Of a stretch of DNA of 42,561 nt, positions 6,797-28,472 are shown piece after piece. How positions within the stretch are numbered: position 1 is the stretch's first letter; the number at the start of each line of letters is the position of its first letter. Source of the stretch: a virus; UHGV virus genome UHGV-0163196; one strand, written 5' to 3'. The notes beneath the pieces are model-generated. The model was not told the DNA's origin. It saw only the letters and a list, made by a program, of their open reading frames with translations, and made no database searches. Made by a program: the position numbers and the translations under genes.

Positions 6797-8811
6797 TATC
6801 TCGGTCCTGCGGGGAGTTGCTGGGTTAACTGTGAATTCACGCCCTTTTGACGGTCAACAGTCAAACGGGCAGCTTCGCGAGGATCGGAAACGCCGTGGAT
6901 GTTAATGTTCGTTTCCTGCTGAATCACCGGGGCGCTGGTGGGCATGTTGCTCATTACTTTCGGAATGTAGTTGCGCGTTTCCTGCGGCATTAGCCCCATT
7001 CCATAACGCTTAACATTCCCGATCCCCCAGTTATATGATGCCAGTGCTTTACTAAGGTCTCCGCCGTTCTGCCGCAATAGCTGGCTAAGGTACTTAGCGG
7101 CTGCCTGAGCTGACTTTTCCGGGTCGAACACATCGTTACCACGCAGGCCCATGTCTCGCGCCGTACCATCCATGAACTGGAACAGACCTTTAGCGCCAGC
7201 GCCTGAAACGGCGAACTGATTACCGCCAGATTCCGTTATGGCCACACTGCGCAATAACCCCTCCGGAAGCCGGTAGAGCTGTTCCAGGTTGGTAAGCATC
7301 GGCTGCATCCATCCCAGCAGTTCAGAGCCTGCTTTGGTTGGCTGTGGCCGCTTAACTGACTGGCCGAGCTGTTCAGGCTCATCATCACCGAACCAGCCGC
7401 GCACCGTTCGGCCCACGCTGCGAGGATCGAATCCCCAGTGCTCTTTAATCCAGTCGGCGGTACCGTTGGCGCTATCTGTTACCATCGGCATCGCTGACGG
7501 ATTTTCGCTGCCCTGATTTAGCAGCTGTTTGCCTATACTAGCGGCCTGCGCCCAGTTGCCATCTTTTATGGCATTCAGCAAATCAGCGATCATGTTCAGC
7601 ATCTTGCCGAACTCACCCATTTGCGAAATGAAGTTGCTAAAATCCCACTTTAGGGACCATGACTTGGGGTCAATACCGAGCAACTTAGCCAGCGCTTTTG
7701 TCAGGTCCGTAACAGTCTTTTTCAGGTCACCAATCATTTTGACGGCCTGATCAATTTCAGTCTTCCATTTCCCCCAGTCAATCAGGCTTTTGCCACCTTC
7801 TTTCCACGTCTGGTAATCATCCAAGAGCAGACCAAGTGCAATAATAAGCGTCGTTATCATGCCCAAGGGTGATGACATGAAAGCGGTATTTAGCAGCCGC
7901 CATGCAACCAACAGCCCACTGAACAATGCGATAAGCTGCTGCGTGGCTGGGTTCAGCTTTTTGAACCAGGCGATCACACCCTCAACAGCTTGCCCAGTTC
8001 GCCATAACACGCGGGTAATCGCGTCACCTGCCCAGAGAATTCCTTTGATGATCTTCGTGATGACCGCTTCAATCTTCGGCCAGTTGTCGAGTATCTGCCT
8101 GCGGAAGTTATCAATACTGCCAGCAAGGCCACCAGCTAGGTTAGAGCCAATCTTGTCTTTCGCCTGTCCAAGCGTCATCGTCAGATTACGCATGGAGGTC
8201 ATGAAAATATTGGACTGTTTAGCCGCTGACTCAGCATTAAAACCAATACGCTTTGCCGTCAACGCGTACTCAGAACTGAGCTGCCCCATCCCTCTGCGCA
8301 TCGCCATCAGCGTGTTTTCATCGATGCCAAGCATCTGCGCGTATTGTTTCGCGCGGTAATACGGCATGTTGTTGAGCTTTTGCCCAACGCCAGTAAAGAT
8401 GGCCGCAGTATCACGCATCTTTCCGCTGGCATCGCGGGTCTGTACGCCCAGACGGTTCAGGAACCCTTCCGCCCCCGGATTGCTACGCATGAAACCAGCC
8501 AACCCTTCAAGAGAGGACATGGCCGACTCGGCGCTGGCACCGGTTTGCGATGCGGCATAGCCCAGCGCTTTGATGCCCTGGACGCTGGCCCCCGTCCGCT
8601 GGGATGCCCAGTAAATTTTATCCAGACCATTCGCGATCTGGGTGGTAAATCCGACAATGCTAAGCGCTGAGCCTTTCACCACCGCGCCGACCTTCAGAAC
8701 GTTCGCGGTAACGCCTTTCAGCACGGCTTCAAACTTATTAGCGCCAGCCTGATCGATATCGAATCCCAGCGAAACAAGGAAATCTTTAATCGTATCTGCG
8801 TTACCGCTCAT
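6796..8811 (-). CDS. Tail tape measure protein with C-terminal lytic transglycosylase domain
   Basis: 671 aa; helical N-terminal region with a hydrophobic segment, and a C-terminal SLT-like motif (…ESGGNQFAVSGAGAKGLFQFMDGTARDMGL…YNWG…). Confidence 0.75.
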   Translation of the reverse strand: MSGNADTIKDFLVSLGFDIDQAGANKFEAVLKGVTANVLKVGAVVKGSALSIVGFTTQIANGLDKIYWASQRTGASVQGIKALGYAASQTGASAESAMSSLEGLAGFMRSNPGAEGFLNRLGVQTRDASGKMRDTAAIFTGVGQKLNNMPYYRAKQYAQMLGIDENTLMAMRRGMGQLSSEYALTAKRIGFNAESAAKQSNIFMTSMRNLTMTLGQAKDKIGSNLAGGLAGSIDNFRRQILDNWPKIEAVITKIIKGILWAGDAITRVLWRTGQAVEGVIAWFKKLNPATQQLIALFSGLLVAWRLLNTAFMSSPLGMITTLIIALGLLLDDYQTWKEGGKSLIDWGKWKTEIDQAVKMIGDLKKTVTDLTKALAKLLGIDPKSWSLKWDFSNFISQMGEFGKMLNMIADLLNAIKDGNWAQAASIGKQLLNQGSENPSAMPMVTDSANGTADWIKEHWGFDPRSVGRTVRGWFGDDEPEQLGQSVKRPQPTKAGSELLGWMQPMLTNLEQLYRLPEGLLRSVAITESGGNQFAVSGAGAKGLFQFMDGTARDMGLRGNDVFDPEKSAQAAAKYLSQLLRQNGGDLSKALASYNWGIGNVKRYGMGLMPQETRNYIPKVMSNMPTSAPVIQQETNINIHGVSDPREAARLTVDRQKGVNSQLTQQLPAGPR

Positions 8812-9041
8812 TGGCCGCTCTCCATTTATCTACCCGGGCGTCGTTATCCTCGCGCATGTCGAGGTAGTCATTGAGAAGCGCGATACGGCAGAGGTCTACC
8901 GCACCGCTGTTAAGGTCTTTCTGGTCAATATGGAAGGCAAGCGCCGGACGAAGAATAAAGTCTTCACCGCCCGGCAGGCTGTTGAAGGTTATTCCGCTGG
9001 CGGGGTGGGCGTCTCGCTGGTAGGGAGTCCTTGCAAAAAAT
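8801..9041 (-). CDS. -1 frameshift extension of the tail assembly chaperone (gpGT / E+E' analogue)
   Basis: The -1 frame is open from the slippery run GGGAAATTTTTTG (plus strand 9033-9041) near the chaperone 3' end to a TAA at 8801-8803, overlapping the tape measure start. Confidence 0.45.
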
Positions 9042-9414
9042 TTCCCAGCGAGTCGGCGACCACCCGCGCCACCAGTTGCAGCATGGTAAGCAGGTCGATA
9101 TCGTCAAACGCCATTTCGCCATGCTGGCAGACCGGCACCCAGCCTTTCATGTGCTCGCGTGAAACAACGGAAAGACAGGGGAACAGGATAGCGTCCACGT
9201 CGCCATCACTCAGATCGGACACAGCATTGGCAATCTTTGGCAGGATGGTAGCCATCGCGCCTTCGGTGTCTTTGCTGCTGATCTTCTCCTGAACGCTCCG
9301 GAAGTCCGAAACCATCCCGGCCAGAACCGGCAACAGCTTGCGGGACACCTTCAGCTGTTCGAAAACGCTGAGCTTTGCGGTGCGATATTTCACGCCTTTA
9401 ATTTCGAATTCCAT
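8989..9414 (-). CDS. Tail assembly chaperone
   Basis: 141 aa acidic protein between the tube and tape measure genes, with a downstream -1 frame extension. Confidence 0.5.
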   Translation of the reverse strand: MEFEIKGVKYRTAKLSVFEQLKVSRKLLPVLAGMVSDFRSVQEKISSKDTEGAMATILPKIANAVSDLSDGDVDAILFPCLSVVSREHMKGWVPVCQHGEMAFDDIDLLTMLQLVARVVADSLGNFLQGLPTSETPTPPAE

Positions 9415-9417
9415 GCG

Positions 9418-9858
9418 TTAAAACTCCCCGAGAAGCTGGTCAATCTTGCCGCAGTCGAATACCCAGGCGACGGTTCCGCCCTCTTTAGCGTTATTGAAAT
9501 CAGGCTGTTTCTGGAATGCACACGAACGCGCAGTAGAAATATCACCCGATGCCGTGTTGCGAATGACGATCACGTTATTGCCCCAGGTGGCAGAGGACTG
9601 GCTTTGCGCGTTATACGCCAGAGACAGCTTTTTATTCACCGGGGAGGTTTTGAGTAGCGTCACCGTAATGGTGCCTGACTTATCGGCGTGCAGGCTGTGC
9701 ATCACCTCGCCGTCGGCACCGATGGTCATGGTGTTTTTGTTGCCGCCCATGGTCTGGGTGATACCTTCCTCAGAGTTCGCAGAACCCTGACCAAGATCGA
9801 TAACGCCGGTCGGCCCGGTGAGCGACGCGGTTACATCGAGAAAAGAATAAGTTGCCAT
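9418..9858 (-). CDS. Tail tube protein (putative)
   Basis: 146 aa ORF immediately downstream of the sheath-like gene. Confidence 0.5.
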   Translation of the reverse strand: MATYSFLDVTASLTGPTGVIDLGQGSANSEEGITQTMGGNKNTMTIGADGEVMHSLHADKSGTITVTLLKTSPVNKKLSLAYNAQSQSSATWGNNVIVIRNTASGDISTARSCAFQKQPDFNNAKEGGTVAWVFDCGKIDQLLGEF

Positions 9859-9868
9859 TTATCGCTCC

Positions 9869-11029
9869 TTAGCGAACCACGTTGATCTGCACATCGGCGT
9901 AATGAACTGCGCCAGCCAGCTTACAAGCCACCTGGATTAACGGCGCTTTGCGTGCTTCTCGGTCAGCCTGTGCTTGCTCGGAAAGAGGTTGCGCATACAC
10001 GTAATAACCTTTTGTCAGCGTATCGCCGGAATTCAGTTGCCCGATAGGGCCACCATTCCACACGCCAGCCGCTACCAGACCGTTCGTGACGGACTGATCC
10101 ATGGACTGTTCAACGTTGGAAAGCAGACGGGTCACACCGGCATCAGTCTGCGGAATTTTGGTGGTGCTGGTGTAAAGCAGGTTATAGAGGTTGGTCTGAA
10201 CGTAGTTCTGCAACCAGTCGAGCCCGTGGCGCTCGTCGAAGAAGTCACCGTTCGCCATGACACCCTGTTGCAGGATCGCCGTGTCGTTGGCGTAGTACAC
10301 GAACACGTTCGCATTCTTCGCATCCACAGCCGCCGCCTGTCCTACCGTCAGCGTTTCGTAGGTTACGCTCGGTTCCTGTTTGAATTTCAGGGTAATGGTG
10401 GTATTGCTGCCGTTGAAATTGACAGTAAACGCGCGACCGAAAGCTGAAACCGCCGCATAAGGGCTGCTGGTGGAATATTGAATAAAGGTACGGGAATACT
10501 TACCGGCCTTTAATTTAGACGCAACATCGGTCGTCGAAGTCGTGCTGATGATCTCAGCGTCGGCTGACGTTACCCCGAAAATGCGGCTCAGGCTGGACGC
10601 TTCGATGAGTTTAGCAACCTCAATCACGTCGTCAGCATCAAGCACATCATCGCCATCAGCAACATCATCAGCGACAACCAGCCCATACCAGTTGGTATAC
10701 TGCAGGCAGGCATTAACAGCTTGCACGATGGTTTCCACGCTTCCACCTTCGGAAGAGGTCAGCGTCTTCGCCCAGCGGCCAACATAAACCTGCGTCGGCT
10801 TCGGCGACTGGCTGAAGAAAACCTGCGCCGCTTCATATTCCGGGCTGTCGACTCCGAAGTCCTCGCCAATGTCATCAACGGACGCATAAAGGCGAACGCG
10901 CTCCTGCACCGGAATGACAGTGGAAGAACCGAGGATCAGCAGTGCGCCGAAGTTACGACCAGTAGCCGCTTTCGGCGAGATGATCACATCAACGTTTACA
11001 ACGTTGGATACAGGTAAGCCCTGCGTCAT
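9869..11029 (-). CDS. Tail sheath protein (putative)
   Basis: 386 aa ORF upstream of tube, chaperone and tape measure genes; resembles short sheath-like proteins of P2/Mu-unrelated myovirus prophages. Confidence 0.55.
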
Positions 11030-11032
11030 AGT

Positions 11033-11638
11033 TTATTCTCCAAAAAAGGTGACTGGCGCTTCCACCAGCGATTTAATGCCGTACTCGCGCACGACCTTCC
11101 GGCGCAGGCGCACCGTCATGTCGTAGCGGCGAACCCATTGCTGGTTGATAAGTTCGGGGAAAGGGGTCAGACCGGTATAGTCGCCCAGAGACAAACCAAG
11201 CGCGTTCAGCTCAGCATTGTTTTGCGGGACAGATATGCCATCGCGAAAACGGGACGCATAAGACATACCAGCCGGGCCATAGAACGACGCCATGCACTCG
11301 AACGTTTCATGCCGCCAGAGCTGAGCGCCCTCGTCGGTCTGATTGGTGAATGCAGGACTGTTATCAATGGGCCACCCGGTAACGCCGAACGCACACCAGT
11401 TCGTTTCAACTGACGGTAGTGATGGCTGTTCTTTCTGCCAGCGCGGGCGAACCATCCCCGCAGGCAAGCCGGAAACATTGCGCATCCATCGGCTTAGCAG
11501 CCTGTCGAGCGCTTCGTCATAATCAGGATCGCCGCTGGTGGGTGTCAGCCAGCCGCGCTCTGTGCTGGTGTTATTGCTCAACGGGAGTTCCCCCATCAAA
11601 CGGCAGTAATTCGCAATGTGCCTGGACAAAGCCAGCAC
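11033..11638 (-). CDS. Structural protein (tail completion/neck; start uncertain)
   Basis: 201 aa ORF in the head-tail joining block; overlaps the upstream gene, so an internal start is likely. Confidence 0.35.
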   Translation of the reverse strand: MLALSRHIANYCRLMGELPLSNNTSTERGWLTPTSGDPDYDEALDRLLSRWMRNVSGLPAGMVRPRWQKEQPSLPSVETNWCAFGVTGWPIDNSPAFTNQTDEGAQLWRHETFECMASFYGPAGMSYASRFRDGISVPQNNAELNALGLSLGDYTGLTPFPELINQQWVRRYDMTVRLRRKVVREYGIKSLVEAPVTFFGE

Positions 11639-11960
11639 CGTAAGCCGTGTACGGGTCGACGAATGTCACACGATAATCACGGTTCTGGTACGTCACGATA
11701 TCGGCATCACGGCCAGTCTGCCCCTGCGTCAGCCGCTCAGTTGTCACGATGAGAATCGCGCCACTGATAACCTGGCCGGACTGCATACGTCGGTTTTCGA
11801 GAGAGCGGTCAACGGTAACAACTCCGGCAAACTGCGTTTTAACTTCGCTGTCGCTGCCGATCCCGTCCTCGTCCACCGTTTGCGCGCGACGCGTTACCCA
11901 CAGGTTGAAGTCGCAAAAATCGGGGTCAAAAAGTACGTCCGTCACATCAAGATTCGGCAT
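11571..11960 (-). CDS. Head-tail joining protein (putative)
   Basis: 129 aa ORF in the operon between capsid and sheath genes. Confidence 0.35.
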   Translation of the reverse strand: MPNLDVTDVLFDPDFCDFNLWVTRRAQTVDEDGIGSDSEVKTQFAGVVTVDRSLENRRMQSGQVISGAILIVTTERLTQGQTGRDADIVTYQNRDYRVTFVDPYTAYGAGFVQAHCELLPFDGGTPVEQ

Positions 11961-12501
11961 CTTTATCCCTCACAACATGGGTAATGGCTCTGCGATATTG
12001 CCCGGTGTCAATTAGCGGTTTCACCAGGTCGGTTCCGGGAGACTCGCCAGCAGCGCGCCGCGCAAGTTCCGCTTTTGCCCCTTTGCGGCCACGGCGTGCA
12101 CGGGCTTCAACGGTGCTATCAGCAAGCGGTGTAAAGCCGGTAATGGTCATGTAACTCCTGACGCCATTCGCGGCCAGCGTTCCGGCGCGGTTAAGCGCTC
12201 TTTCTGCACCCGCCGCATTTCCATCAAGCGCAGCCTGCGCCGCTGCTTTGAGCTGCGGCACCGTCTGTTCCTCTACGGATTTAACGCCGGGGATCAGGTG
12301 CGGGCGTGGGGGTATGTTTTGCGCTGGTGAGCCGTATTCGTTGACGTAACCGATCCCGGCATTACCAAACGGAACATCCTCACGCTCGCTGTCTTCTTCC
12401 GGGATGCCGACCAGCACATCCTTTTTGGTTAGCGACCTGAGCGCATCCAGAATGGCCTGAGCGTTATCCACCCTCGTTGTTACACCGCTTTTGAAACTCA
12501 T
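11947..12501 (-). CDS. Virion morphogenesis/head completion protein (putative)
   Basis: 184 aa ORF with Ala/Arg-rich C-terminus, within the structural operon. Confidence 0.35.
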
Positions 12502-12941
12502 AGCTGGCGACCGCCCGCACCGAACATCGTGATCAGCTGATAAAATTCAGCGCCGTATCGGGTGTTATTCCAGAAGCCAGCGTCAGGGTTTAGCGTCGCG
12601 CTGGTGTCATAGCTGACGCTTACCTTGTCAACGGACTTGGAGGACTGCACACCATTGGTTGAACCGCCCGGGCCGCCAACCAGCATTGCCCGGCTATCTG
12701 CCGCCCATAGCGTCATGTAGTGAGCCACGAACAACTCGGCAAAATACGGAAACAACTCTTTGCCGGTGGCGTTTTCGCTCAGCAGCACATCGGCCAGATT
12801 CAGACGAAACTGGATTTGTGCTTCGGGATATTTGGCAGGGTCAGCAAACTGCGGGAAGTCGCGGCGAAAATCACTTACTGTTGGCAGGCTTTGATTCTTT
12901 GGCATCTTTCGCCCCATTACCGCCAGTCTGGGCGGCAGCAA
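12498..12941 (-). CDS. Head-tail connector protein (putative; start probably internal)
   Basis: 147 aa ORF in the structural operon; the upstream overlap suggests a start at an internal Met. Confidence 0.35.
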
Positions 12942-13260
12942 TCTGCGCTTGCAGGCTGTCGTTCTGCTCTTGCAGCTTGAGCAGCGCTTCTTTCAGATCG
13001 GCAATCAGCTGATCTTTATCGACAATCTGCTTATCTTTGTCGGCAATCTGCGCTTGCAGGCTGTCGATAATGGGTTGCAGATCATCGGTGTCGCTAATCA
13101 CGCTTTCGGAAAGCTCAGAATGCGCCTGGGTGAACCAGTGCGACGCGACCTCTTCCGGTACGTTATGCCGTCCCCGGCCAAACTCCCTTTTTGACTGATC
13201 GCCGAGCGTCAGCGTAAACGGGGTGTGAACATGGATGGTAACCAGCTTTTCTTTCGCCAT
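12871..13260 (-). CDS. Coiled-coil structural protein (decoration/head fibre candidate)
   Basis: 129 aa; C-terminal repeats ([22 protein letters not shown]) encoded by DNA direct repeats; follows the major capsid gene. Confidence 0.4.
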
Positions 13261-13301
13261 TTTCAGTTCCCTTCTGGCCCCTTTCGGGGCCGTTCTGGTT
13301 A

Positions 13302-14243
13302 TCAGATACCGTCCACGTAGGACAGGGTTTCTTTGTACACTGGCTCAACCGCACCGAGCTTGCCGTAGTAGGTCGCAATCTGATACAGACCGCGATACTG
13401 GACAGGAACGCTTTGCAACGGCACCAGCGGATAGCGCACGTATTTCTTGTCGTTGGTGTAGGCGATCATACGGTCTTTACCGCCAACCCCACGCCCTTTC
13501 AGCCATTTGACCGCTTTGATTTCAAGCGGAACGCCGTTCTGGTGGAAAGCGATAGTGTTCACAGCCAGATAGGTCAGCAGTGACTGGTTACCCGCTTCGG
13601 AAACCTTACGGCTCGCCAGCAGTGAATACTGCTCTGGCGGAATGCGCAGATCAGAAGGCACGATGGAATAACCGGATGCTGCCCAGGCATTAGACAGAAT
13701 GCTGTTCACGCTATCGAGGATCTCGTCGTTGGTTGAGTTCGCCCAGATCTTCGGCGCGTTGTTCAGCGTCACACCGACGAGGTTTGCCAGACCTTTCAGG
13801 CCGAGTGCGTCATCACCGATGTAAACCTGCTCGTCGTTGTCCATCTGCCATTTGAGCTGCATCCCGTCGTACTTCTGGGTATCAATCGGGCGGCCTACCT
13901 GCTGAGCAGCTGCCAGCTCTACAACGGTCCAGCCCAGTTCCATACCCCAGAGGTTCAGTGGATTGCCGTCTTTGCTGATATCCACGTTCACGCCAGCAAT
14001 AGCGGTGGAGTCTTTGCCTACCCAGTTTTTACCGTTCGGATTTGCGCCAGTACCCGCAGCGCCAAAACTGGTGTTAGTCCAGCTGGAAATGTCATCTGCG
14101 ATAGAAACGTCTTCACGCAGCTGAATATCGCGGGTCCAGGTGTAACCCACCAGCGGCAGATTCAGCGTCTGGTCGAGTCGCTCCAGCTCCCCGATGAGAA
14201 AGGCACCAGAGCTATCAACGGTTGCCTGATCAAAAGTAATCAT
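13302..14243 (-). CDS. Major capsid protein (putative)
   Basis: 313 aa ORF, the largest in the head block, preceded by a 160 aa decoration/scaffold-like ORF. Confidence 0.6.
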   Translation of the reverse strand: MITFDQATVDSSGAFLIGELERLDQTLNLPLVGYTWTRDIQLREDVSIADDISSWTNTSFGAAGTGANPNGKNWVGKDSTAIAGVNVDISKDGNPLNLWGMELGWTVVELAAAQQVGRPIDTQKYDGMQLKWQMDNDEQVYIGDDALGLKGLANLVGVTLNNAPKIWANSTNDEILDSVNSILSNAWAASGYSIVPSDLRIPPEQYSLLASRKVSEAGNQSLLTYLAVNTIAFHQNGVPLEIKAVKWLKGRGVGGKDRMIAYTNDKKYVRYPLVPLQSVPVQYRGLYQIATYYGKLGAVEPVYKETLSYVDGI

Positions 14244-14254
14244 TCGTCTGTTCC

Positions 14255-14737
14255 TTAAATCTTCCAGGAGATTTCTGCATTGCCGTTAGCGTCACCGGCC
14301 CCTGTGAATTCGGCGTTGGTCAGCGCCACGTTTTTGCCACTGACGGACGTGGACATGAAGCCGCCCAGCGGCACTTTGATGGATTCATCAGTGGAGACGA
14401 CAACGTATACCGGGTCGCCTTTTTTGATGGTGCTGGCATCAAAATCAGAACCGAGATTAACGGTCATGTAGCCACGCTTCATGGCGTCACCCGGGAAGTT
14501 CTTATCCGTCCCCACCTGGCGAACCATGTCTGGCTGCGATGTGGTCGGATACGGACGAACGTAGATCCCCTTCACCTTGTCGGCGGTGTCACCGTCCGCC
14601 AGCGGCACGAAAAAGCCGTCAGCGTCATATTTGCCAGCCAGACCATAGGCAGCGAAGGCGTTAGCGGATTTAAGGATCACCGGTTCGACGGTTAAGTCCT
14701 GCGGGCGAGAGATAGCCCCGGCAATGCCAACAGGCAT
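14255..14737 (-). CDS. Head decoration or scaffold-like structural protein
   Basis: 160 aa ORF immediately upstream of the major capsid gene; first helper gene left of the inserted island. Confidence 0.45.
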   Translation of the reverse strand: MPVGIAGAISRPQDLTVEPVILKSANAFAAYGLAGKYDADGFFVPLADGDTADKVKGIYVRPYPTTSQPDMVRQVGTDKNFPGDAMKRGYMTVNLGSDFDASTIKKGDPVYVVVSTDESIKVPLGGFMSTSVSGKNVALTNAEFTGAGDANGNAEISWKI

Positions 14738-14969
14738 CCGGTACAGGAATGCAAGGCTATTATTTAATCACCTGAAATATAAGGGTTTATTTGCAGTCTG
14801 ATTTTGCGTGTAGTCCATAGGCTGCTCTGTGATGTATGTCGCTGAATGGGGTAAGTTACTCAATAACAGATCTGTAGGATTTACAGGGGATTTCAATATG
14901 CAAGCTGTGCCACCAGCCCATTAGCGAACGGCGCTATTTTCCGCGCGTGACGTGTCACGGCGCTGGTGG

Positions 14970-15443
14970 TTATCCCATGAATTTGCGGTATACCTCCCCG
15001 GCTTCTTCGGCGGTTAGGTTCGTTGTTTCCGTTCTGATCGGACCACCATCCTTACCCGTTGTTTCAACCTTTAATTTGTTGGTGTAAGCGTCCCCGCACT
15101 CTTTCGCGGCCTGTTCGATAAGCTGTGCTGTTAATGCGTAATTCTTGATTGCCTCTGCACGGTTCGCCATGCGATCGAGCATACGCAGCCGGTACGCTTT
15201 GTTAGCGATAGGGATATCGGATATTTCACTCTGGAAGCGGGCGCGAGTGTGATTAAAGAGTTCTACCCATTTTTGGCTAAGATTTTTAGCCATTGTATTT
15301 TCAGGGTTGTAGGCCGATATCTGTTGCCGGGTAACAACGATGCCAAAATCTTGTTTTACAAGTTCGACGATTCTGGAAGGGGGTTCATAGCAAGCTAATG
15401 ATTGAATAATCATAACCTTAGCCATTGTTGGTAATGCCGCCAT
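14970..15443 (-). CDS. Small terminase-like protein (Sf6 gp1-like; candidate packaging-redirection factor)
   Basis: 157 aa; C-terminus KLKVETTGKDGGPIRTETTNLTAEEA resembles the Sf6 gp1 terminus (…VGKDGGAIQIETSP…); lies far from terL, inside the island. Confidence 0.55.
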   Translation of the reverse strand: MAALPTMAKVMIIQSLACYEPPSRIVELVKQDFGIVVTRQQISAYNPENTMAKNLSQKWVELFNHTRARFQSEISDIPIANKAYRLRMLDRMANRAEAIKNYALTAQLIEQAAKECGDAYTNKLKVETTGKDGGPIRTETTNLTAEEAGEVYRKFMG

Positions 15444-15535
15444 TGTTCACCTTTTGACAAAGGAAATAAAAGTAGCGTGCTGAGTTCTGCCCCTGCACCG
15501 CTACTTAAAGTTACAGATCACGTCATGGGTAGCTA

Positions 15536-16108
15536 TCACTCGCTCTCCAGATCCTCAAGAGAGAAGCAAATATGCTGTGTTGAAACAAAATAGCTCAGCA
15601 TGCTGCTTACCTTGTTTGACGCGACGTAATTATAATGCTCGACCATCTTTGCTAACGCGATAATCTCCCACCAGTAATGCTTAACTAGCTTTAGCGAAAT
15701 TAAATAAGCCCGGCTATAGAGCTTGTCGCAATCATCTCCTGTTGCGCCTTGGTTCCTGTATTGCTCAAGCACTTTCCGAATATCGCTGGCGTCTCCTTTC
15801 CCTCCATTTTCCAGTAGTTTTTCAGGTGGTTCGCCTGAGTAAAGGTGTTGTGCCATTACGCCAGAAAAAGAGACGACCATCTGCGCCAGTTCATCTTTTC
15901 TGACGGGGAGATGTGAGCATACCGCCCGGCAATTATCGACCTCTTTGCCGTTAGCCAGTCGAGCAATACGAAACTCATCAGCAATAGATATCTCAATTTG
16001 CCTAGCACCCGTAAACCACGCAGCCATCGCGTGACCGGCTTCATGGATCGCGATATTTCTGTCCCACATAGGGCTTTTGCTGAATTCAACAATTACGCCA
16101 TCACTCAC
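15536..16108 (-). CDS. Standalone HExxH zinc metallopeptidase-like protein
   Basis: 190 aa with the motif IAIHEAGHAMAAW (HEAGH, as in FtsH/M41 and ImmA-like peptidases) and no ATPase domain. Confidence 0.5.
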   Translation of the reverse strand: MSDGVIVEFSKSPMWDRNIAIHEAGHAMAAWFTGARQIEISIADEFRIARLANGKEVDNCRAVCSHLPVRKDELAQMVVSFSGVMAQHLYSGEPPEKLLENGGKGDASDIRKVLEQYRNQGATGDDCDKLYSRAYLISLKLVKHYWWEIIALAKMVEHYNYVASNKVSSMLSYFVSTQHICFSLEDLESE

Positions 16109-16170
16109 GCTGCTTACTCTCCGTTAGATCTGTCATTTAGTTAAATTGAACTGCGTTGGGGGAGTCTCCA

Positions 16171-16350
16171 TCACACACTCCCTTCAACTGCTATTGATTC
16201 CAGCGCCTTAGCCACCAGCCCACGAGCAATTTGATGGACAGACGGCGCGACGCCAATATCGGAGCGCTGGCGTTCGCGCTCCTGGATCTTGCAGATTGCG
16301 GCGAACTGGTCGCCAGAGAGTAATACCGGCTTAACGTTTGGCTTTTTCAT
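16171..16350 (-). CDS. Small hypothetical protein (59 aa)
   Basis: Internal start MKKPNVKPVLLSG… of the 112 aa track ORF; the other reading would overlap the upstream 64 aa gene. Confidence 0.3.
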   Translation of the reverse strand: MKKPNVKPVLLSGDQFAAICKIQERERQRSDIGVAPSVHQIARGLVAKALESIAVEGSV

Positions 16351-16525
16351 CCTGTTCACTCCAGAACTTTGCATTCGCTTCGTTGACTTTTTCCAGATTG
16401 CGGCATTCGTTGTTGAAGTTGTTGCGCATCCGCAATTGCTCGGCCTGTTCACGGCCAAAGAGTTTACGCCCGGCGCTTTGCGGGTTTCCTGCAGCCAATT
16501 TCGGGTCATAAATAGCCATGCTCAT
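16331..16525 (-). CDS. Small basic hypothetical protein (64 aa)
   Basis: ATG preceded by AAGGAG with good spacing; lysine/glutamate-rich and probably helical. Confidence 0.4.
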   Translation of the reverse strand: MSMAIYDPKLAAGNPQSAGRKLFGREQAEQLRMRNNFNNECRNLEKVNEANAKFWSEQDEKAKR

Positions 16526-16531
16526 TGCTCC

Positions 16532-17095
16532 TTACTTCGTGCGATGCCAGAAACTGGCGTTATCGGTGTTAATGCTGCGAATGGCGTCGCCTGTGGAGAG
16601 AATCTTCGGTGAAACGTTGTTAACTCGCATGTAGTCGCCAACCTGCTCCAGAACGTCGATAGCCTGATCAAGCTGAATCTCTGATAGCGGGGTCGGATGT
16701 ACCGCACTGAATGCCTCAGCGGGTGCGTAACGCAGCACATCAAGCGCAACAAGGCGAGGATCGGTATCAGGAAGGGCGTTGTCATACTTTGGTGCTACAG
16801 CGCGTACCAGGCGCATAAATTCAGCGTCCATTGCCGTTGGTGCGGTAGAGGTGGGAGAAGCGCCGCTGCCACTACGTGTAATCATGTCACTATCGCGGGT
16901 GTACATCCGGCGCAAGCGGTCTCCGGTTGCAATGCGTGTTGCACGTTCCTGCTTAAGCGTCGTTGCAAGATTCGCAATGACGAGAGCCACAGGAAGCGAG
17001 CAGGTCAGCCTTTCGAACGTATCATCGGAGTAAGTCACCTCGACGGTACCACCAGCGTTATCACTTTCCAGATTAACATTGGTTATCTGTTTCAT
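16532..17095 (-). CDS. Hypothetical protein (187 aa), first gene of the island's left module
   Basis: ORF following a promoter-like AT-rich region at 17100-17250; no recognisable motif. Confidence 0.45.
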   Translation of the reverse strand: MKQITNVNLESDNAGGTVEVTYSDDTFERLTCSLPVALVIANLATTLKQERATRIATGDRLRRMYTRDSDMITRSGSGASPTSTAPTAMDAEFMRLVRAVAPKYDNALPDTDPRLVALDVLRYAPAEAFSAVHPTPLSEIQLDQAIDVLEQVGDYMRVNNVSPKILSTGDAIRSINTDNASFWHRTK

Positions 17096-17378
17096 TGTTC
17101 ATAACCTTTTGCGTTGTTTAAATTCTGATCATTGCATAAATTGCAACATTAGTAAATATCATTGCGCATATTGAAATGGCAAATCGACGTGATACTATGA
17201 CGGTGATCCACCATTGTGTGATTGCATAAACATGGTTATCAAAAGCCCTCGCCTCTCCAGCGCGGGCTTTTTCTTTTCCGCTCCGCAAAGTTGCCGTTTC
17301 CGCATACTTTCACTTAGGCGACGCCCCTCCAAATTCGTAATTACTCTCCGAAAAAACTCTATAGATAAGCAAAAACAT

Positions 17379-17675
17379 GTTGGTTCAGTTGGTTCAGTTG
17401 GTTCAATTTGTAAAGATTGTTGTTTTATAAGGATTATTTCTTTCAGAGTGAACCAACAAAGCCCCGTTTTGAACCAACAAACGCTATTTTCGTGTTGGTT
17501 CAGTGGGAAAGATTTACAGGCCAGCCAGAAAAAGGCGTTGGTTCAATAGCGGCATTTGTTGGTTCAAAATGGGCGTTTGTTGGTTCGGTGTTGGTTCACT
17601 TACAAGCATGTAAATGCATTAAATACATACACTTATATTAATTAAATAGTTACTGAACCAACTGAACCAACAAAA
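17379..17675. repeat. Iteron cluster: candidate satellite replication origin
   Basis: At least 12 copies of the core TTGGTTCA in both orientations (for example 17379-17405 tandem, 17449-17457, 17470-17478, 17494-17502, 17654-17670), interspersed with AT-rich DNA, immediately downstream of the primase-helicase gene. Confidence 0.7.
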
Positions 17676-17696
17676 AAACATCTCGTATGTGTGTTT

Positions 17697-20477
17697 TTAT
17701 TCTTCACCCTCCATCTCGTCGGGTCGTAGCTGGAGCACATAAACGTTTATCTGGCGTCCATCAATTCGCGGGGATTTACGCTGATACCCCCTTCCGCTGG
17801 CTGGCGGTTTCAGCACCCCAGCCCCGGCCAGCACACGGGCAAACTGTTTCGCGTTGAATCCCTTCGCAATCTCACCTTCGAATGCTGCCGGGAACGTGTA
17901 GAACACTATCGGATCAGCATCATGCGCCCCTTTCTGACGGTACCCGGCCAAATCCCGAATCGGCATGTCAGCCGGGTCATAAGGGTAAGGTGCAAATCGG
18001 CTCAGTCCGTATGCATTAAGAAACGCCTCTGCCTGCTCGATGATCTGCTTATGCTCACGGTTCCCCGTGCCAAACTCTTTCACCCAGGCGTTAAAGCCAT
18101 GCTGGATGGCGTCCCGGCTTTCCTGCTCCCCCCAGCCAGTGACAGGCATCCCAAGCACCAGCGCCGCCTCCAGAATGGCGAACCGCTCGCCTACACGATG
18201 AACCTGTTCGCCATAATCAGCGGGGATAAGACTGCGCCAGCGCTCTTGCGCCGCTCTGACAGCTTGTTTTGCCTCCTGCTGGTGGCCTGCAAGCCATTTA
18301 ATCCATTCACGGCCTGCGGCTCCGTGGTTCGTCTGGTAAGCCTCTTTGAGTGCGTCGGCGTGTTGCTTCCCGTTCTGGTACTCATGGTGCGTTACTGATT
18401 TCTCCATCGGTAAATTAAGCAGCCGCACCAGTTGTCCGGCCTTAACTTTCAGCCCACCAGCAGAAAGAAACGTCTCAATGTCCATTTCCCCGGTACTGAT
18501 CGCCACGGTACGCCAGCGCTTTAACTCGCGGTTGCCTCCCTCCTTCGCCCCCTGTAGCTTTCCGGCACCGTTAAACAGCGTGTAAGCTGACGTGGCAACG
18601 TCTTTGGCGCTACTGCCCTGCCCCACTTCGTCCAGCGGTAACAGGCTATCGTTATGCGCTTCCGCTTCGTTGGCGATACCCAGCGCAGTACCGTACCAGG
18701 TGAGGCGCAGGGCATCCGGTTCACCGTATAAACTGCTGGCAATGTTGGCGGTCGTTGTCTTCCCTGCGCTGGACTGTTCGAAAAGGTGAACACCGAAACC
18801 GTCAGCGCCAACAAGCCCGATCAGCGGTGCAGACAGCGCAGCCGCAACACCCAGCATCATTGACGGGTTTCCCAACGCAAGACGCGCCACCGAATCACGC
18901 CAGCTTTCCGGCGTTCCACTGACGGTATAGCCACCAGCCGCCGCACTGCGGCCACTGAATAAAAGCGGTATCTCTGGATCACCAATAACATCACCATCCG
19001 GCATGATGTACGCCCCGCTGTGCCAGCCTGTGGTGTGGCTGATCTGCCACTCCTTGCCGCTACCGGTTCGCTGTAGCCAGTCGGCCAGAATTGCCCGCAA
19101 CGATGGTTTGGTCGTCACACTGACACCGCCGTTTTTCAGAGTTCGCCATCCCTCGCGGTCGCCAATGTCCTCCCAAGGAAGCGCACGGGTAACTTGCCCC
19201 CGATTGCCGGGAACGTCCCAACGCAGGATCAGAAAGCGCTGTCTGGCGTTATCACTCCCCGCACCAGCAATCTCCAGCGGAGAGCATAGCCACGCCTCGG
19301 TATTGATAATTTCCCCTGTGTCTTTGTCCACTTTCGGGGTGATCCAGTGAATGCCATCCGAACGGCTCTCTACTCGCGGTTTAAGGTCGTCGTCGATACC
19401 AGGGCTTTTTTTGCCGCCGTCGATTGCTGTCAGTGTCGCACCCACTTTCTTACCCTCCGGTTGATACATTGAGTCGTTAAATGCTGCTGTGGCCGCTTCG
19501 AGGCCGTATTGCTGGTGGTAGTCGTTCCAGTCCGCTTTATAGTCCACTGGTGGCATGGAAACCCAGCCAGAAACGGCTTTCGCGGCTTTCTCTGCGGCCT
19601 CCTTGCCAGTGTTAACTTTCACTCCTTTAATTCCGTCACTTTCGCCCATCTGGTCGTTATCTGCGGCAATGATGATTTGTGCCTGTGGGTACTTCCGGCG
19701 CATCACTTCGGCAACGGGTAGCAGGTTGCCCGCGTCAATTGCTGCCACTGCCAGCGCGTCCGGGCGCATCAGGTGAACTGAAAGGGCCGTCGCCAGCCCC
19801 TCGGCAATTAAAACGCTCTGCGGCGATTCTGGCGCGTTTACGGCATGATATGCCCCGCGCTTTGCTGAACCTGTCAGGAGTCGCTTCTCTCCCTGCGGTG
19901 TAATGGTTTGCGCTGCTGCCACTGCGCCGGATTCGTCCACCAGCTCCAGCAATAACGAACCATCAGGCATAACCGGATAGTTAAACCCGGTCAGCCCTTT
20001 TGATTGCAGGTAATCAGATTCGCCCTGTGTGGCACTCTGGCGCATTCCGGCATACAGACGGGCAAACGTAGCCCTTCGCTGCTCTGCGTCCCCTGCTGCC
20101 TGTTTCTGGCGCTCCTGCTCACGCTGCTGGCGGTCAGCTTCCAGTTGCTCCCTTCTATGGCTCGCTGCCACCGGGTCGGATTGCGCTGCCAGGTAATCAA
20201 TACCCAGCACGTCAGCGGCAAGCTGTGCCGCCTCCGTAGTGTCGCAGTTGTTAACCCGCTTGATTAAATCCAGCCCGTCACCAGCGCCACACTGGTTGCA
20301 GATAAAGCTACCGCGCCCGTTGTCGTCGAATCTGAAACGGTCTTTTCCACCACATGCAGGGCATGGAGAATGGCGGCGCGATGAATCAGGCACGTCGATA
20401 GACAACCCAGCCAGCACATAAGGCCAGCGCCCTGCTGCGGCGCTGGTCACTTCGCGGATAAGGTCGATATTACGCAT
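17697..20477 (-). CDS. P4 alpha-like primase-helicase (zinc-ribbon, TOPRIM, D5-like helicase)
   Basis: Zinc ribbon CPACGG…CNQCG, TOPRIM-like IIIAADNDQ, Walker A SSAGKTTT; ~925 aa. Start taken at MRNIDLIRE. Confidence 0.85.
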   Translation of the reverse strand: MRNIDLIREVTSAAAGRWPYVLAGLSIDVPDSSRRHSPCPACGGKDRFRFDDNGRGSFICNQCGAGDGLDLIKRVNNCDTTEAAQLAADVLGIDYLAAQSDPVAASHRREQLEADRQQREQERQKQAAGDAEQRRATFARLYAGMRQSATQGESDYLQSKGLTGFNYPVMPDGSLLLELVDESGAVAAAQTITPQGEKRLLTGSAKRGAYHAVNAPESPQSVLIAEGLATALSVHLMRPDALAVAAIDAGNLLPVAEVMRRKYPQAQIIIAADNDQMGESDGIKGVKVNTGKEAAEKAAKAVSGWVSMPPVDYKADWNDYHQQYGLEAATAAFNDSMYQPEGKKVGATLTAIDGGKKSPGIDDDLKPRVESRSDGIHWITPKVDKDTGEIINTEAWLCSPLEIAGAGSDNARQRFLILRWDVPGNRGQVTRALPWEDIGDREGWRTLKNGGVSVTTKPSLRAILADWLQRTGSGKEWQISHTTGWHSGAYIMPDGDVIGDPEIPLLFSGRSAAAGGYTVSGTPESWRDSVARLALGNPSMMLGVAAALSAPLIGLVGADGFGVHLFEQSSAGKTTTANIASSLYGEPDALRLTWYGTALGIANEAEAHNDSLLPLDEVGQGSSAKDVATSAYTLFNGAGKLQGAKEGGNRELKRWRTVAISTGEMDIETFLSAGGLKVKAGQLVRLLNLPMEKSVTHHEYQNGKQHADALKEAYQTNHGAAGREWIKWLAGHQQEAKQAVRAAQERWRSLIPADYGEQVHRVGERFAILEAALVLGMPVTGWGEQESRDAIQHGFNAWVKEFGTGNREHKQIIEQAEAFLNAYGLSRFAPYPYDPADMPIRDLAGYRQKGAHDADPIVFYTFPAAFEGEIAKGFNAKQFARVLAGAGVLKPPASGRGYQRKSPRIDGRQINVYVLQLRPDEMEGEE

Positions 20478-20811
20478 GGTTGCCTCCTGCCACGGTCGCG
20501 CCCATATCATTAATCATGCTTTGCCATATCTCGCGCCCGACGTCAGTCAATCCGTCCTTAGTGACGCAACGATCAAGAAGCTCGATCCCCACGGTTTCCC
20601 ACTGCGGGTAGAACACTTTCATGGCTGCCAGTGTGTAGCTATCGATCAGGCTGCGAACGCCTTTTACTCCATTGACGATTTCCACACGGACGGCGAGGCC
20701 GTCCGCATCAACCATGAAATAGTCCCCGCCGCTGGTGGCGGTAATGTGGTTATACAGTGCCGACGCATACTTATTCGCCAGCGCATTCAGTCGGAAATTT
20801 TTAGTAATCAT
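20470..20811 (-). CDS. Hypothetical protein (113 aa)
   Basis: ORF coupled to the primase start; no recognisable motif. Confidence 0.45.
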   Translation of the reverse strand: MITKNFRLNALANKYASALYNHITATSGGDYFMVDADGLAVRVEIVNGVKGVRSLIDSYTLAAMKVFYPQWETVGIELLDRCVTKDGLTDVGREIWQSMINDMGATVAGGNHA

Positions 20812-20820
20812 GTCGCCCCC

Positions 20821-21447
20821 TCAGTGCGCCAGCGGCATTTCAGGCCAGCCGTTTTCATCCAGTTCAGCTATAAAGCTGTTGTGAAGTTCAGCAAGCGTTT
20901 CACGCCCGAACGGGGTCAACTCGCCGCGCTCCGTGTCCAGCATGGCCTGATAAAAAACAATGGCGTTCGCCGTTCCCTGCTCAATGCCGTAGCGCTCAAT
21001 CATTGCGCCCTCGATGTTGTTCGCCATCGCCAGCCGTTCAGCAAACGGGTAAACCACCATGCCCGCATTACCATTGGAGTAAATCGCCACCTGCGATGAT
21101 GTGCCGTCAGCCTCAGTAACCGTGGTGGTGCCGTTCTCGCGCTTCATCTCAGAAACGAACGTCGCAGCAATCAGCCAGCGCCACATAGTGACGTTATGCT
21201 GCGCGGTGAAGTCGAACCAGCCACGCGCCCCGCCATCAGCAACGGCAAAATGAATGGCGTAGCCGATATCGGGCGTATCGTCGTACTCTCCCGCATCCAG
21301 ACGGCTTACAGCGCTCTCATAGGTGATAATGGCTACATGCTCATACATCCCGGCATCGTTGCGGGTCATGATATTGACGCCGTGCGGTGTGGCTTCGGCG
21401 TGGAACAGGTCGGGATTTCCCGGTTTAATGGTCAGTATATTGCTCAT
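20821..21447 (-). CDS. Hypothetical protein (208 aa)
   Basis: ORF in the island's early operon; no recognisable motif. Confidence 0.45.
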   Translation of the reverse strand: MSNILTIKPGNPDLFHAEATPHGVNIMTRNDAGMYEHVAIITYESAVSRLDAGEYDDTPDIGYAIHFAVADGGARGWFDFTAQHNVTMWRWLIAATFVSEMKRENGTTTVTEADGTSSQVAIYSNGNAGMVVYPFAERLAMANNIEGAMIERYGIEQGTANAIVFYQAMLDTERGELTPFGRETLAELHNSFIAELDENGWPEMPLAH

Positions 21448-21665
21448 GCTTTGCCCTCCCGATATTCACGCATTACATGGTCAGCTAGCTTGCTTTCAGC
21501 CTCGCTCATTGCTTCGGGCACACCGTGTAACAGCGTCAGAATGGAACCTATAAGGCGTGGTAAATCGGGATCTGTTTTATTGGTGGTGCTCTCCAGCCAC
21601 ATGGACAAAACAGCCTGTGCCTGTTCAATCTGGCAGGCAGCATCAATCAGTTGTAACTGGCTCAT
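21444..21665 (-). CDS. Hypothetical protein (73 aa)
   Basis: Small ORF overlapping its neighbours by 4 nt. Confidence 0.35.
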   Translation of the reverse strand: MSQLQLIDAACQIEQAQAVLSMWLESTTNKTDPDLPRLIGSILTLLHGVPEAMSEAESKLADHVMREYREGKA

Positions 21666-21925
21666 GCGCTGCCCTCCGCATCAATTCTGGCTATATCGAC
21701 AATCGTCAGGACTTTACTAAGCCAGCAATACGCGATGGCTGCTTGCTCAACTTCGAGGAGTGGTAATAAATCGGTCATAACGTGAGCCAGCCCATTGCGG
21801 GCGCGGGTCATGCGTTCTGCGGTACGCTCTGCCAGCGTGAAAGAGTCAGGGTACGGCTGTTCGCGGGATAGCATCGCCTCGGCCTCAAGATCTGCAGGAT
21901 GGCGATAGATGGTATGAATGTTCAC
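21662..21925 (-). CDS. Hypothetical protein (87 aa; GTG start or internal Met)
   Basis: ORF in series with the neighbouring small genes; start codon uncertain. Confidence 0.35.
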   Translation of the reverse strand: MNIHTIYRHPADLEAEAMLSREQPYPDSFTLAERTAERMTRARNGLAHVMTDLLPLLEVEQAAIAYCWLSKVLTIVDIARIDAEGSA

Positions 21926-22101
21926 GCTGCCACCTCCTGAATACGAGTAATACGAACGTGCTTATAACCGCCTTTATTCGCCAGTAGTTGCGCAGTCGAT
22001 TTAGCTGTTTCTGGACTGGTGCTAGTCATGGTGTAGTGAATGCCGACGGTGTTACCGCGCTTGTTAACAGCGTATCCGTCGATCTGGAAGGTTTTACGCA
22101 T
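21922..22101 (-). CDS. Small hypothetical protein (59 aa)
   Basis: Hand-translated MRKTFQIDGYAVNKRGNTVGIHYTMTSTSPETAKSTAQLLANKGGYKHVRITRIQEVAA; below the ORF track length cut-off. Confidence 0.3.
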   Translation of the reverse strand: MRKTFQIDGYAVNKRGNTVGIHYTMTSTSPETAKSTAQLLANKGGYKHVRITRIQEVAA

Positions 22102-22972
22102 TTCCGACCTCCATTGCTAAACGGGACTGGATAGCTGCCGCTTTACTGCCTAATTGCAGGTAAGTACGAGTTATCGCAGGGTTGCTATGACCCAGCATTT
22201 CAGAGGCCACTAATAGGCCCTGTTCGCCACCTGCGGACATGAGGTTAAAGGCGGCTATTTTGCGGCTTGAGTAGGCGCTCAGGCGCAATTTAGCGTTAAT
22301 GAAACGGGTAAACCACGCCATGACGCCATGAAGTTTGCGCCAGATGGTTTGGCGAGTAACGCTACCTTCCAGACGTTGACAACGGTTACTTTCGATTTGA
22401 GAGCGGGAAAATACCAGGTCGTCCTCCACCAGATTCCGATCCTGACGGTCACGCAGCCGCTTGATAATGCCGGGGGGTAACTGTTTGGTGTCGTGCTTGA
22501 CGTCAGCCTTAGCCACCAGCCCGAACACAATCGCCTGTTCTTCGTCGTTCATATCGGCGGCCAGTTCATCACAGCCGATACTATCCCACTTCATGTAGGC
22601 GATATGGTCAGCGGCGAGCCGCGCGGCGTCCTTGCGCTGCTGGCGCACAATTTCAATACCTTTGCGGGTTGCCCGCGCTTCTGCGGCTTTGGTCTGTTTG
22701 GAAACGATAATTGTCGCCTGTCCAGTTTCCCAATTGATGCAGGAATAGCGCAGGTTGCAAACGTCGCTGGTACGCCAGCCGGTTACGGTCGCAATATCCC
22801 ACCAGAGCAACACCCAATCGGGCTGTGTCTGCTGGATGCGCTCGCGTAGCTTGCGCTGCTCGTCACGGTCATAGACAGGGGTCATGGTGCGACTGCCCTT
22901 TGTGCTCGCCGCTTTAACGACATTGCCGCGCAGCTCGCGGGCTTTGGCTGTCAGAGTCTGGAGGTTAAACAT
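22094..22972 (-). CDS. Second tyrosine recombinase (short phage-integrase family, no arm-binding N-domain)
   Basis: About 292 aa from MFNLQTLTAKAREL; C-terminal LGHSNPAITRTYLQ with a candidate catalytic Tyr and conserved Arg/His positions. Confidence 0.65.
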   Translation of the reverse strand: MFNLQTLTAKARELRGNVVKAASTKGSRTMTPVYDRDEQRKLRERIQQTQPDWVLLWWDIATVTGWRTSDVCNLRYSCINWETGQATIIVSKQTKAAEARATRKGIEIVRQQRKDAARLAADHIAYMKWDSIGCDELAADMNDEEQAIVFGLVAKADVKHDTKQLPPGIIKRLRDRQDRNLVEDDLVFSRSQIESNRCQRLEGSVTRQTIWRKLHGVMAWFTRFINAKLRLSAYSSRKIAAFNLMSAGGEQGLLVASEMLGHSNPAITRTYLQLGSKAAAIQSRLAMEVGNA

Positions 22973-23153
22973 GACGCACCTCCGGCACTGGCAGACGTGC
23001 GGCCAGAGACAAAATAAAGTGCGGCGCAAGGATGCGGCGGGCTTCGCGTTCGGTCGCAGCCTCAACGGACAGACGGCAAGGTTTGGCTTTTTTATCGTGG
23101 CGATTCAGCGCGAGAAAGCGCCAGGTGAATTTTGAGTGTGCGGATCTAGCCAT
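22965..23153 (-). CDS. Small protein (possibly Icd/Ash-like)
   Basis: 62 aa, MARSAHSKFTWRFLALNRHDKKAKPCRLSVEA…; recalled resemblance to small Icd-like prophage proteins only. Confidence 0.35.
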   Translation of the reverse strand: MARSAHSKFTWRFLALNRHDKKAKPCRLSVEAATEREARRILAPHFILSLAARLPVPEVRHV

Positions 23154-24544: not shown

Positions 24545-24708
24545 CGTCCTAATGCTCTTTCAAACCAAGAATGTAGGACATAGTAAATTGTGGTTAATGG
24601 CAAGTCGATATAAAGGCCGGGTTATTGGCTTCGGTGCCAATATCATTTCTCCGAAATTTCATAACGCCTGTAATCGCTCGTTTCCCCATCTTGGGGACAT
24701 TTCAAAAC

Positions 24709-25420: not shown

Positions 25421-25438
25421 TGTCTATCGCTCTGGATC

Positions 25439-28458: not shown

Positions 28459-28472
28459 GGTTTACCTGCGAT

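Follow-up and report, generated by a model that had tools for sequence, protein, structure and literature searches.

FtsH-type proteases are thought to need an AAA+ unfoldase to deliver substrates into their buried active site. In ImmA/ImmR and IrrE/DdrO, small HExxH peptidases are paired with repressors. Phage-inducible chromosomal islands (PICIs) include a helper-embedded class (HE-PICIs) with a four-zone organisation inside the helper late operon (Tommasini, Mageeney & Williams, 2023, PMC10111431). PICI immune systems have been described at the 5′ and 3′ ends and in the pri-adjacent region of these islands, among them the single-gene system Tai; neither PADLOC nor DefenseFinder picked up the Tai-type genes (He et al., 2024, PMC11364771). 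Here, we describe a gene in the virus genome UHGV-0163196, a stretch of 42,561 nucleotides (hereafter the window) that represents an enterobacterial prophage. The gene lies within a satellite inserted in this prophage, in a slot whose content is exchanged between related islands, and encodes a small zinc peptidase. We conclude with high confidence that the product is a soluble protein made solely of an M41 (FtsH-type) protease domain with the full catalytic set H22/E23/H26/D106. The gene and the positions that define the protein are listed below.

15536–16108, minus strand: coding sequence, starting with GTG, for the stand-alone zinc peptidase (M41-like) of 190 aa (from the listing of open reading frames, ORFs).
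16117–16122, minus strand: Shine-Dalgarno sequence GGAGAG, 8 nt 5′ of the GTG start, read from the sequence.
16031–16045, minus strand: codons of HEAGH (H22-E23-A24-G25-H26), the HExxH zinc-binding/catalytic motif, read from the sequence.
15791–15793, minus strand: codon of D106, the predicted third zinc ligand, from conservation and alignment to the FtsH Asp.

The translation contains IAIHEAGHAMAAW at residues 19–31, with 21 residues N-terminal to the HExxH motif and 164 residues C-terminal to HEAGH; its 190 residues compare with the 191 positions of the Pfam M41 model. The M41 domain takes up the whole protein, which leaves no space for either an AAA+ module or an anchor in the membrane. A Pfam search of the peptidase returned no PF00004 match that would indicate an AAA+ module, and its AlphaFold2 (AF2) model contains no long hydrophobic helix before residue 17 that could serve as an N-terminal transmembrane anchor. 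An earlier reading made from the sequence only had described a HEAGH-containing protein of 190 aa without an ATPase domain, and the ORF, the motif and the absence of AAA+ were all verified. The GC content of the gene (~0.44–0.49) is slightly lower than that of neighbouring genes.

As a single sequence, the peptidase matched Pfam M41 in the motif region only (E = 0.016, 15.5 bits) and did not pass the gathering cutoff of 29.9. Single-sequence searches of PHROGs, PADLOC and NCBIfam gave no matches, and phmmer against the Protein Data Bank (PDB) returned noise only. A search of 5.8 billion proteins found 11 relatives, nine of them full-length (186–197 aa) and two partial, and the close-homologue alignment has 60 invariant columns, H22, E23, H26 and D106 among them. 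An exhaustive HMMER search of 1.84 billion representatives returned 70 proteins, all of 54–293 aa and none with an ATPase, and every close relative measures 160–290 aa; 41 stand-alone proteins from this set were aligned to give the family profile. In this alignment, H22, E23, H26 and G83 are invariant, so that the HExxH residues are conserved as the sequence-only reading required, and A20, A24, G25, A27, A86, D106, W146 and A153 are conserved in at least 90% of members.

The 41-member profile matched the FtsH protease domains in the PDB over profile positions 8–185 (E = 1e-16 to 1e-15) and retrieved authentic AAA+-M41 FtsH proteins (E ~1e-16), and 29 of the 41 members individually matched PF01434. 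The profile alignment pairs the D106 column with the TGAEND-motif Asp of FtsH (2di4 and 2dhr). Crystal structures of FtsH show this Asp as third zinc ligand, and by analogy D106 is predicted to have that role in the peptidase. E. coli FtsH (7vhp) scored worse against the profile (E = 2.9e-10) than thermophile FtsH (1e-16), with an identity of only ~15%; the peptidase is therefore not a recent copy or fragment of host ftsH. Compared with the family profile, FtsH also carries an insertion of ~33 residues that is absent from the stand-alone proteins. A second profile search, of genome contigs, was saturated by true FtsH and yielded four distant loci only, three of which were ORFs of 591–804 aa.

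The AF2 model, built from the close-homologue alignment, had a mean predicted local distance difference test score (pLDDT) of 80 and a predicted template modelling score of 0.81. It showed a metalloprotease fold, on which the sequence-only reading had depended, and the only chains matched by Foldseek in the PDB were those of FtsH, AFG3L2, YME1 and FtsHi, with a template modelling score of ~0.6 on the query. The top match in a viral structure library came from an uncultured phage, a protein of 214 aa labelled 'Peptidase M41 domain-containing protein'. Residues 44–60 (~15929–15979, minus strand) were modelled at low confidence (pLDDT ~52–55), and in the 190-aa subfamily E45-F46-R47-I48-A49 and C60 are invariant. 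The position of this segment corresponds to that of the β-hairpin flanking the active site in FtsH, and it could serve in specificity or as a metal/Cys element.

Two other families were considered. The sequence-only reading had assigned the motif to M41/FtsH or ImmA-like peptidases; the M41 part of that assignment stands (family profile E = 1e-16), and the ImmA part was dropped, as PF06114 matched none of the 41 members and ImmA/IrrE (M78) gave no structural match. Site-2 proteases (M50/M50B) were likewise rejected: the match covered a 24-residue motif only, at E = 4.5e-4 and below the cutoff, and the fold is that of M41.

We found that the peptidase gene occupies a discrete exchangeable segment.

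15527–16192, no strand assigned: exchangeable cassette, which alone lacks nucleotide homology to islands that are otherwise 92–97% identical (blastn against loci L001 and L002).

The islands in E. coli ET791 (L001) and ABWA45 (L002) are 92–97% identical to the window island on both sides of the cassette. Homology breaks at 15526 in L001, or at 14918 in L002, in which the DUF2280 gene has been exchanged as well; both islands are homologous again from 16193. In L001, the gap spans just the gene and a few bases on either side. In these two islands, the slot holds a 239-aa protein with HEAGHA, named 'peptidase M41 family protein' by the NCBI annotation pipeline PGAP, which is 21% (BLASTP) or 25% (global alignment) identical to the window peptidase. 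M41-like alleles occupy the same slot in L001, L002, L012, L019 and L032; the allele in Klebsiella pneumoniae L032 encodes 222 aa, and that in L019 is a disrupted 239-type allele with an IS5 element, beside an intact copy of the upstream gene p59. In other islands (L018, L020, Klebsiella L031, L033 and L034, and Enterobacter L035–37), the slot is taken by captured baseplate, plug and spike genes, so that certain satellites seem to be equipped with a tail-tip module of their own. The clusters of baseplate, plug and membrane-puncturing spike genes lie at 2770–6005 in L018, 3693–5985 in L020 and 5761–8944 in L031. The 190-aa allele and its cassette gave no blastn match in 5,426 complete E. coli genomes; the allele is present in a draft E. 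coli genome, an IMG/VR contig and metagenomes.

The peptidase gene is the fourth in a run of co-oriented genes (p187, p62, p59, peptidase, DUF2280), with which it is probably co-transcribed.

16532–17095, minus strand: p187, the first gene after the putative origin.
16331–16519, minus strand: p62, a small conserved operon partner.
16171–16350, minus strand: p59, directly upstream of the peptidase gene, with a topology like that of ribbon-helix-helix (RHH) proteins.
14970–15443, minus strand: gene for a small-terminase-like DUF2280 protein, downstream of the peptidase gene and last in the island (PF10045, E = 6.6e-39).

Across five islands compared, these operon partners are 52–97% identical and the peptidases 25–55% identical in most pairs; between the window and L001, the partners are 96/97/91% identical and the peptidase 25%. 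Neither p187, p62 nor p59 belongs to a Pfam or PHROG family, and the proteins encoded downstream of the peptidase gene in other islands have no Pfam or PHROG annotation either. Some p187 homologues are named 'XRE family transcriptional regulator' by PGAP. The AF2 model of p59 has an extended N-terminus and two helices, on the basis of which p59 is a candidate RHH protein. In the window, p59 and the peptidase gene are separated by 62 nt, and p59 homologues lie upstream of M41-like genes in L004, L021, L023 and L030. The p187-p62-p59 trio accompanies an M41-like gene in four island backbones, is found in 26 of the 5,426 complete E. coli genomes and is retained where baseplate genes replace the peptidase (L018, L020).

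Every relative with a readable context lies in a PICI-like element or a phage replication module. In at least eight PICI-like backbones, including those of Salmonella, Klebsiella and enteropathogenic E. coli (EPEC) E2348/69, M41-like genes adjoin a primase, single-stranded DNA-binding protein (SSB) or integrase gene. The gene orders observed were as follows.

L004: int, p184, p61, p57, M41, 114-aa secreted protein; elsewhere in the island, a fusion of a helix-turn-helix (HTH) domain and M78, AlpA and a DUF927 primase.
Salmonella L021/L022: int, p183, p62, p58, Q-like antiterminator, M41 (223 aa), 351-aa lipoprotein, AlpA, D5_N/DUF5906 primase.
EPEC E2348/69 and ~20 other complete E. coli genomes: the same int-proximal module at yicC, with a 243-aa 'hypothetical protein' containing VAFHEAGHAVAAW.
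L009, L010 and L011: primase, SSB, M41 (213–239 aa).
L023/L024: primase, p55, M41, 110-aa secreted protein.
L028: AEP/DnaB primase, 199-aa protein, M41, AlpA.
L029: AlpA, 497-aa protein, M41.
Metagenomic phages L025–L027: trigger-factor homologue, two small genes, M41 (216–221 aa), Pol III alpha.

The M41-like genes are thus pri/ori-adjacent in islands of the window type and int-proximal, at the 5′ end, in those of the E2348/69 and Salmonella type. In the Salmonella L021/L022 module, stops and starts overlap; in L021 this holds for the Phage_antitermQ gene (8549–9001, 150 aa), which is inserted after p58 and ahead of the M41-like gene. In L004 (3370–3714), L011 (8624–8974) and L023 (3483–3815), the 3′ end of the M41-like gene shows translational coupling to the gene of a signal-peptide protein of ~110–116 aa; the three copies are 51–65% identical, and the window lacks this protein. 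A lipoprotein of 351–368 aa is encoded directly downstream of the M41-like gene in L021 (9750–10805) and L010 (8674–9780), and the lipoproteins of the window, L021 and L010 are 66–71% identical.

The 190-, 213- and 239-aa alleles had no tblastn matches in 50,697 phage records, and the 190-aa allele had none in 72,556 PLSDB plasmid records. Because these searches were blank, the enterobacterial clade looks satellite-specific, judged by sequence, and not captured from known helpers. The idea that the peptidase is a captured late gene of a helper is unsupported, given the lack of a phage match for all three alleles.

The island that carries the peptidase is bounded by short repeats and can be delimited against an empty site.

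14747–27214 (approximate), minus strand: helper-embedded PICI-type satellite, 12,475 bp from core to core, with an empty site in L003.
14740–14746 and 27215–27221, no strand assigned: the 7-bp core GGTACAG, from the junction sequences.
25794–27023, minus strand: tyrosine integrase (Pfam).
25439–25651, minus strand: AlpA-like ORF, homologous to the annotated AlpA of L001.
23474–24544, minus strand: predicted lipoprotein p356 with lipobox ...SC/GC-TAGK, in the regulatory zone of the island.
23206–23293, minus strand: C4-type antisense RNA (P1/P4-type immunity; Rfam RF01695, 75 bits).
22965–23153, minus strand: 62-aa ORF beside the C4 RNA, in the position of the Icd-like cell-division inhibitor gene of relatives.
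22094–23065, minus strand: second, divergent tyrosine-recombinase-like gene (PF00589, E = 4.9e-11).
17697–20510, minus strand: satellite primase with Zn-ribbon, Toprim and DUF927 domains (Pfam).
17378–17620, no strand assigned: iteron-like direct repeats containing GTTGGTTCA (families D2, D5 and D11), between the primase gene and p187.

The satellite is inserted in the head module of the prophage, between the stop codon of the DUF2213 gene and the start codon of the gene for cement protein Gp24. These two genes are adjacent in the island-free relative L003 (E. coli CP063503), and blastn against L003 showed that window segments 9000–14753 and 27209–30593 meet at the empty site with a 20-bp overlap. 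The left junction reads GCATCC-GGTACAG-GAATGCA (14734–14753) and the right junction GCATAA-GGTACAG-ATATGCA (27209–27228); the satellite ends are imperfect 20-bp repeats with the common core GGTACAG, and the empty site unites their outer arms. According to the annotation of E. coli relatives, the flanking genes encode tail proteins, a head-tail adaptor, a DUF2184 major capsid protein, cement protein Gp24 and DUF2213, and further a minor head protein, a DUF1073 portal and terminase. In the window helper, the PBSX-type TerL is preceded by a different, 251-aa protein (30564–32646).

All satellite genes are on the minus strand, matching the late/head genes of the helper. The C4 RNA and the Icd-like ORF are consistent with the 'Bro/immunity zone' of HE-PICIs, and the second recombinase-like gene is present, besides the terminal integrase, in all related islands. 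The GTTGGTTCA repeat cluster is likely the iteron-type replication origin of the satellite. In the island-free relative L003 (compare 10727–10754), a DUF2280 gene lies directly upstream of TerL, the small-terminase position; the satellite may bring its own TerS-like packaging specificity. With integrase and AlpA, primase-based replication, no full structural set, an empty site and co-orientation with the helper late genes, the carrier island fits the helper-embedded PICI class in its sequence features. The DUF2213/cement-gene integration site was not found by those names among the 14 sites listed in the supplements of PMC10111431, and the DUF2213/Gp24 junction may be an additional HE-PICI target site.

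We propose that the peptidase is a satellite-cargo M41 domain that would act as an ATP-independent endopeptidase on a protein of the helper or of a competitor phage, a reading between whose truth and falsehood our confidence is evenly divided. The peptidase gene is interchangeable cargo that follows closely on the satellite replication module, in the accessory or 'late' zone. Without ATP, its product would cleave a particular protein at a segment that is exposed or disordered. The target would most likely be a helper-phage or competitor-phage protein, with phage interference or immunity as the outcome, and the strongly diverged alleles would reflect target-specific co-evolution. An allelic pattern that resembles an arms race, together with the location in hotspots, favours a phage protein as target; the co-orientation with the helper late operon and the alternation with tail-tip genes fit this choice as well. 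More tentatively, stand-alone M41 proteases could be an unrecognised single-gene weapon of enterobacterial satellites with allele-tuned cleavage, for example of a virion-assembly or packaging component, through which the satellite would acquire phage interference or immunity at the population level; we lean against this stronger version while taking it seriously.

Several points weigh against the cargo-endopeptidase proposal. The peptidase matched no defence model of PADLOC-DB 2.0 (E ≤ 1), and, as it has no sensor domain, a defence role would need intrinsic target specificity. The M41 active sites of FtsH are fed by an AAA+ ring, so a lone M41 domain might be a poor protease. A scan for promoters and terminators, including sites upstream of p187, gave counts no higher than chance. 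Finally, the gene is repeatedly associated with p187-p62-p59 and with replication genes, which could speak for a regulatory or replication-linked role instead.

The best surviving of the other explanations is an ImmA/IrrE-like regulatory protease that cleaves p59, p187, a helper repressor or a host regulator and so switches the satellite or helper programme. The gene arrangement speaks for it: in the window, p59 is the gene immediately before that of the peptidase; in L004, L023 and L030, overlapping stop and start codons couple translation of the M41-like gene to that of the p59 homologue; and in Salmonella L021, it is coupled to the Q-like antiterminator. Pairs of a small HExxH peptidase and a repressor are, moreover, a known theme, and the XRE-family name that PGAP gives to p187 homologues would suit one. 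However, the trio stays unchanged when baseplate genes replace the peptidase (L018, L020), which suggests that it is not a dedicated partner, and L004 and L022 already encode an HTH-Peptidase_M78 fusion. The peptidase falls to 25% identity while the putative regulators remain 91–97% identical, whereas the reverse would be seen if enzyme and substrate co-evolved, and the fold is M41, not M78. We therefore regard a regulatory protease as unlikely.

Somewhat less probable again is a host-takeover or anti-defence protease that degrades a host defence, replication or stress factor in favour of satellite or phage replication. The recurrent neighbours are replication genes (primase, SSB and, in metagenomic phages L025–L027, Pol III alpha), and the presence of distant stand-alone M41 proteins in phage genomes speaks against the wider family serving host protection only. 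However, a conserved host target would not predict alleles of 21–25% identity in near-identical islands of one species.

A toxin of a toxin-antitoxin or abortive-infection pair, with the RHH-like p59 as antitoxin, appears improbable. The small RHH-like gene overlaps the peptidase start in several islands, and the module is located in mobile-element hotspots; yet p59 is also found without the peptidase, and L019 has a disrupted allele beside an intact p59. In the window, a 62-nt gap separates the two, the peptidase gene has its own ribosome-binding site (RBS), and PADLOC gave no match.

Marginally more doubtful still, the peptidase could be an FtsH mimic or modulator that co-assembles with host FtsH or titrates a partner, altering the stability of CII/CIII-type substrates, in which case catalysis would not necessarily be its main function. 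Its fold is that of the FtsH protease ring, the helper is a temperate prophage, and lambdoid lysis-lysogeny proteins are controlled by FtsH. Against this, the low similarity to E. coli FtsH (~15%) shows that it is not a recent host-ftsH copy with a preserved interface, the ~33-residue FtsH insertion is missing from the stand-alone proteins, and the invariant catalytic residues argue for catalysis. As for a chance ORF or a decaying, functionless remnant, the sub-threshold single-sequence Pfam scores and the rarity of the allele (0 matches in the 5,426 complete E. coli genomes) would agree with it, but the RBS, the full-length homologues of 50–98% identity with their 60 invariant columns, the catalytic residues kept across 41 relatives and the confident AF2 model effectively refute it.

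What the peptidase would mean depends on which of these readings is true. Since the conserved family has all catalytic residues and neither motor nor anchor, one may ask how an M41 domain alone finds and cuts its substrates. Its place as cargo in PICI accessory hotspots, its alternation with tail-tip genes and its fast allele divergence are the signature of a gene at the interface of phage, satellite and host. If phage proteins are cleaved, a simple proteolytic mechanism would be added to the satellite repertoire of interference and immunity, and if the weapon reading holds, known PICI hotspots would harbour proteolytic systems of a new class, anti-phage or helper-manipulating. The copy in the reference strain EPEC E2348/69 makes these ideas directly testable. 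If the gene is only a housekeeping accessory, the gain is a modest one of annotation, from 'hypothetical protein' to 'stand-alone M41 peptidase'.

Compared with the FtsH/M41 domains of T. maritima (2CE7), A. aeolicus (2DI4) and T. thermophilus (2DHR), the peptidase has neither the transmembrane anchor nor the AAA+ module; it also lacks the ~33-residue FtsH segment, is only 190 aa long and is borne by a mobile element. Closer to it are the 239-aa proteins of Enterobacteriaceae that PGAP names 'peptidase M41 family protein' (WP_157698515.1 and WP_370613498.1), which are also stand-alone and M41-like. They and their relatives share its niche, as they either occupy this slot in islands of this satellite family or follow the p187-p62-p59 trio, but the 239-aa allele is only 21–25% identical to the window peptidase and has extra insertions. 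The related protein of E2348/69 (WP_000500882.1) is annotated as 'hypothetical' only, and the 190-aa subfamily is unannotated (NCBI label for P0001, 'hypothetical protein'). An uncharacterised Vibrio cholerae protein (PDB 5IQJ) has the same fold and is shorter (131 aa); a literature search returned no function or relevant publication for it.

ImmA/IrrE proteins (M78, COG2856) resemble the peptidase in being small cytoplasmic HExxH metallopeptidases of mobile elements, often beside DNA-binding proteins. They differ in family and fold, and islands L004 and L022 carry the HTH-Peptidase_M78 fusion as a separate gene in their regulatory region. Like Tai, the peptidase is encoded by a single accessory gene next to a PICI primase gene and is missed by PADLOC; we found no sequence relationship to Tai, the three M41-like alleles tested being blank by tblastn in the phage collection. 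The words protease, peptidase and zinc do not occur in the Tai paper (PMC11364771), nor do peptidase or protease in the HE-PICI paper (PMC10111431); papers on PICMI, EcCIMP1 and PLE mention no M41-type protease, and a search of the literature on M41 or peptidases in satellites, PICIs and defence found no relevant or functional study. The island itself resembles the described HE-PICIs in its integrase and AlpA, its C4-type RNA with an Icd-like gene, its primase and its dynamic late zone. Stand-alone M41 proteins had already been named by pipelines (the 239-aa allele by PGAP and proteins of uncultured phages in UniProt), and we found no published function for them. What appears to be new, as read from the genomes compared here, is a motor-less M41 protease that is borne by a satellite and sits in PICI hotspots.

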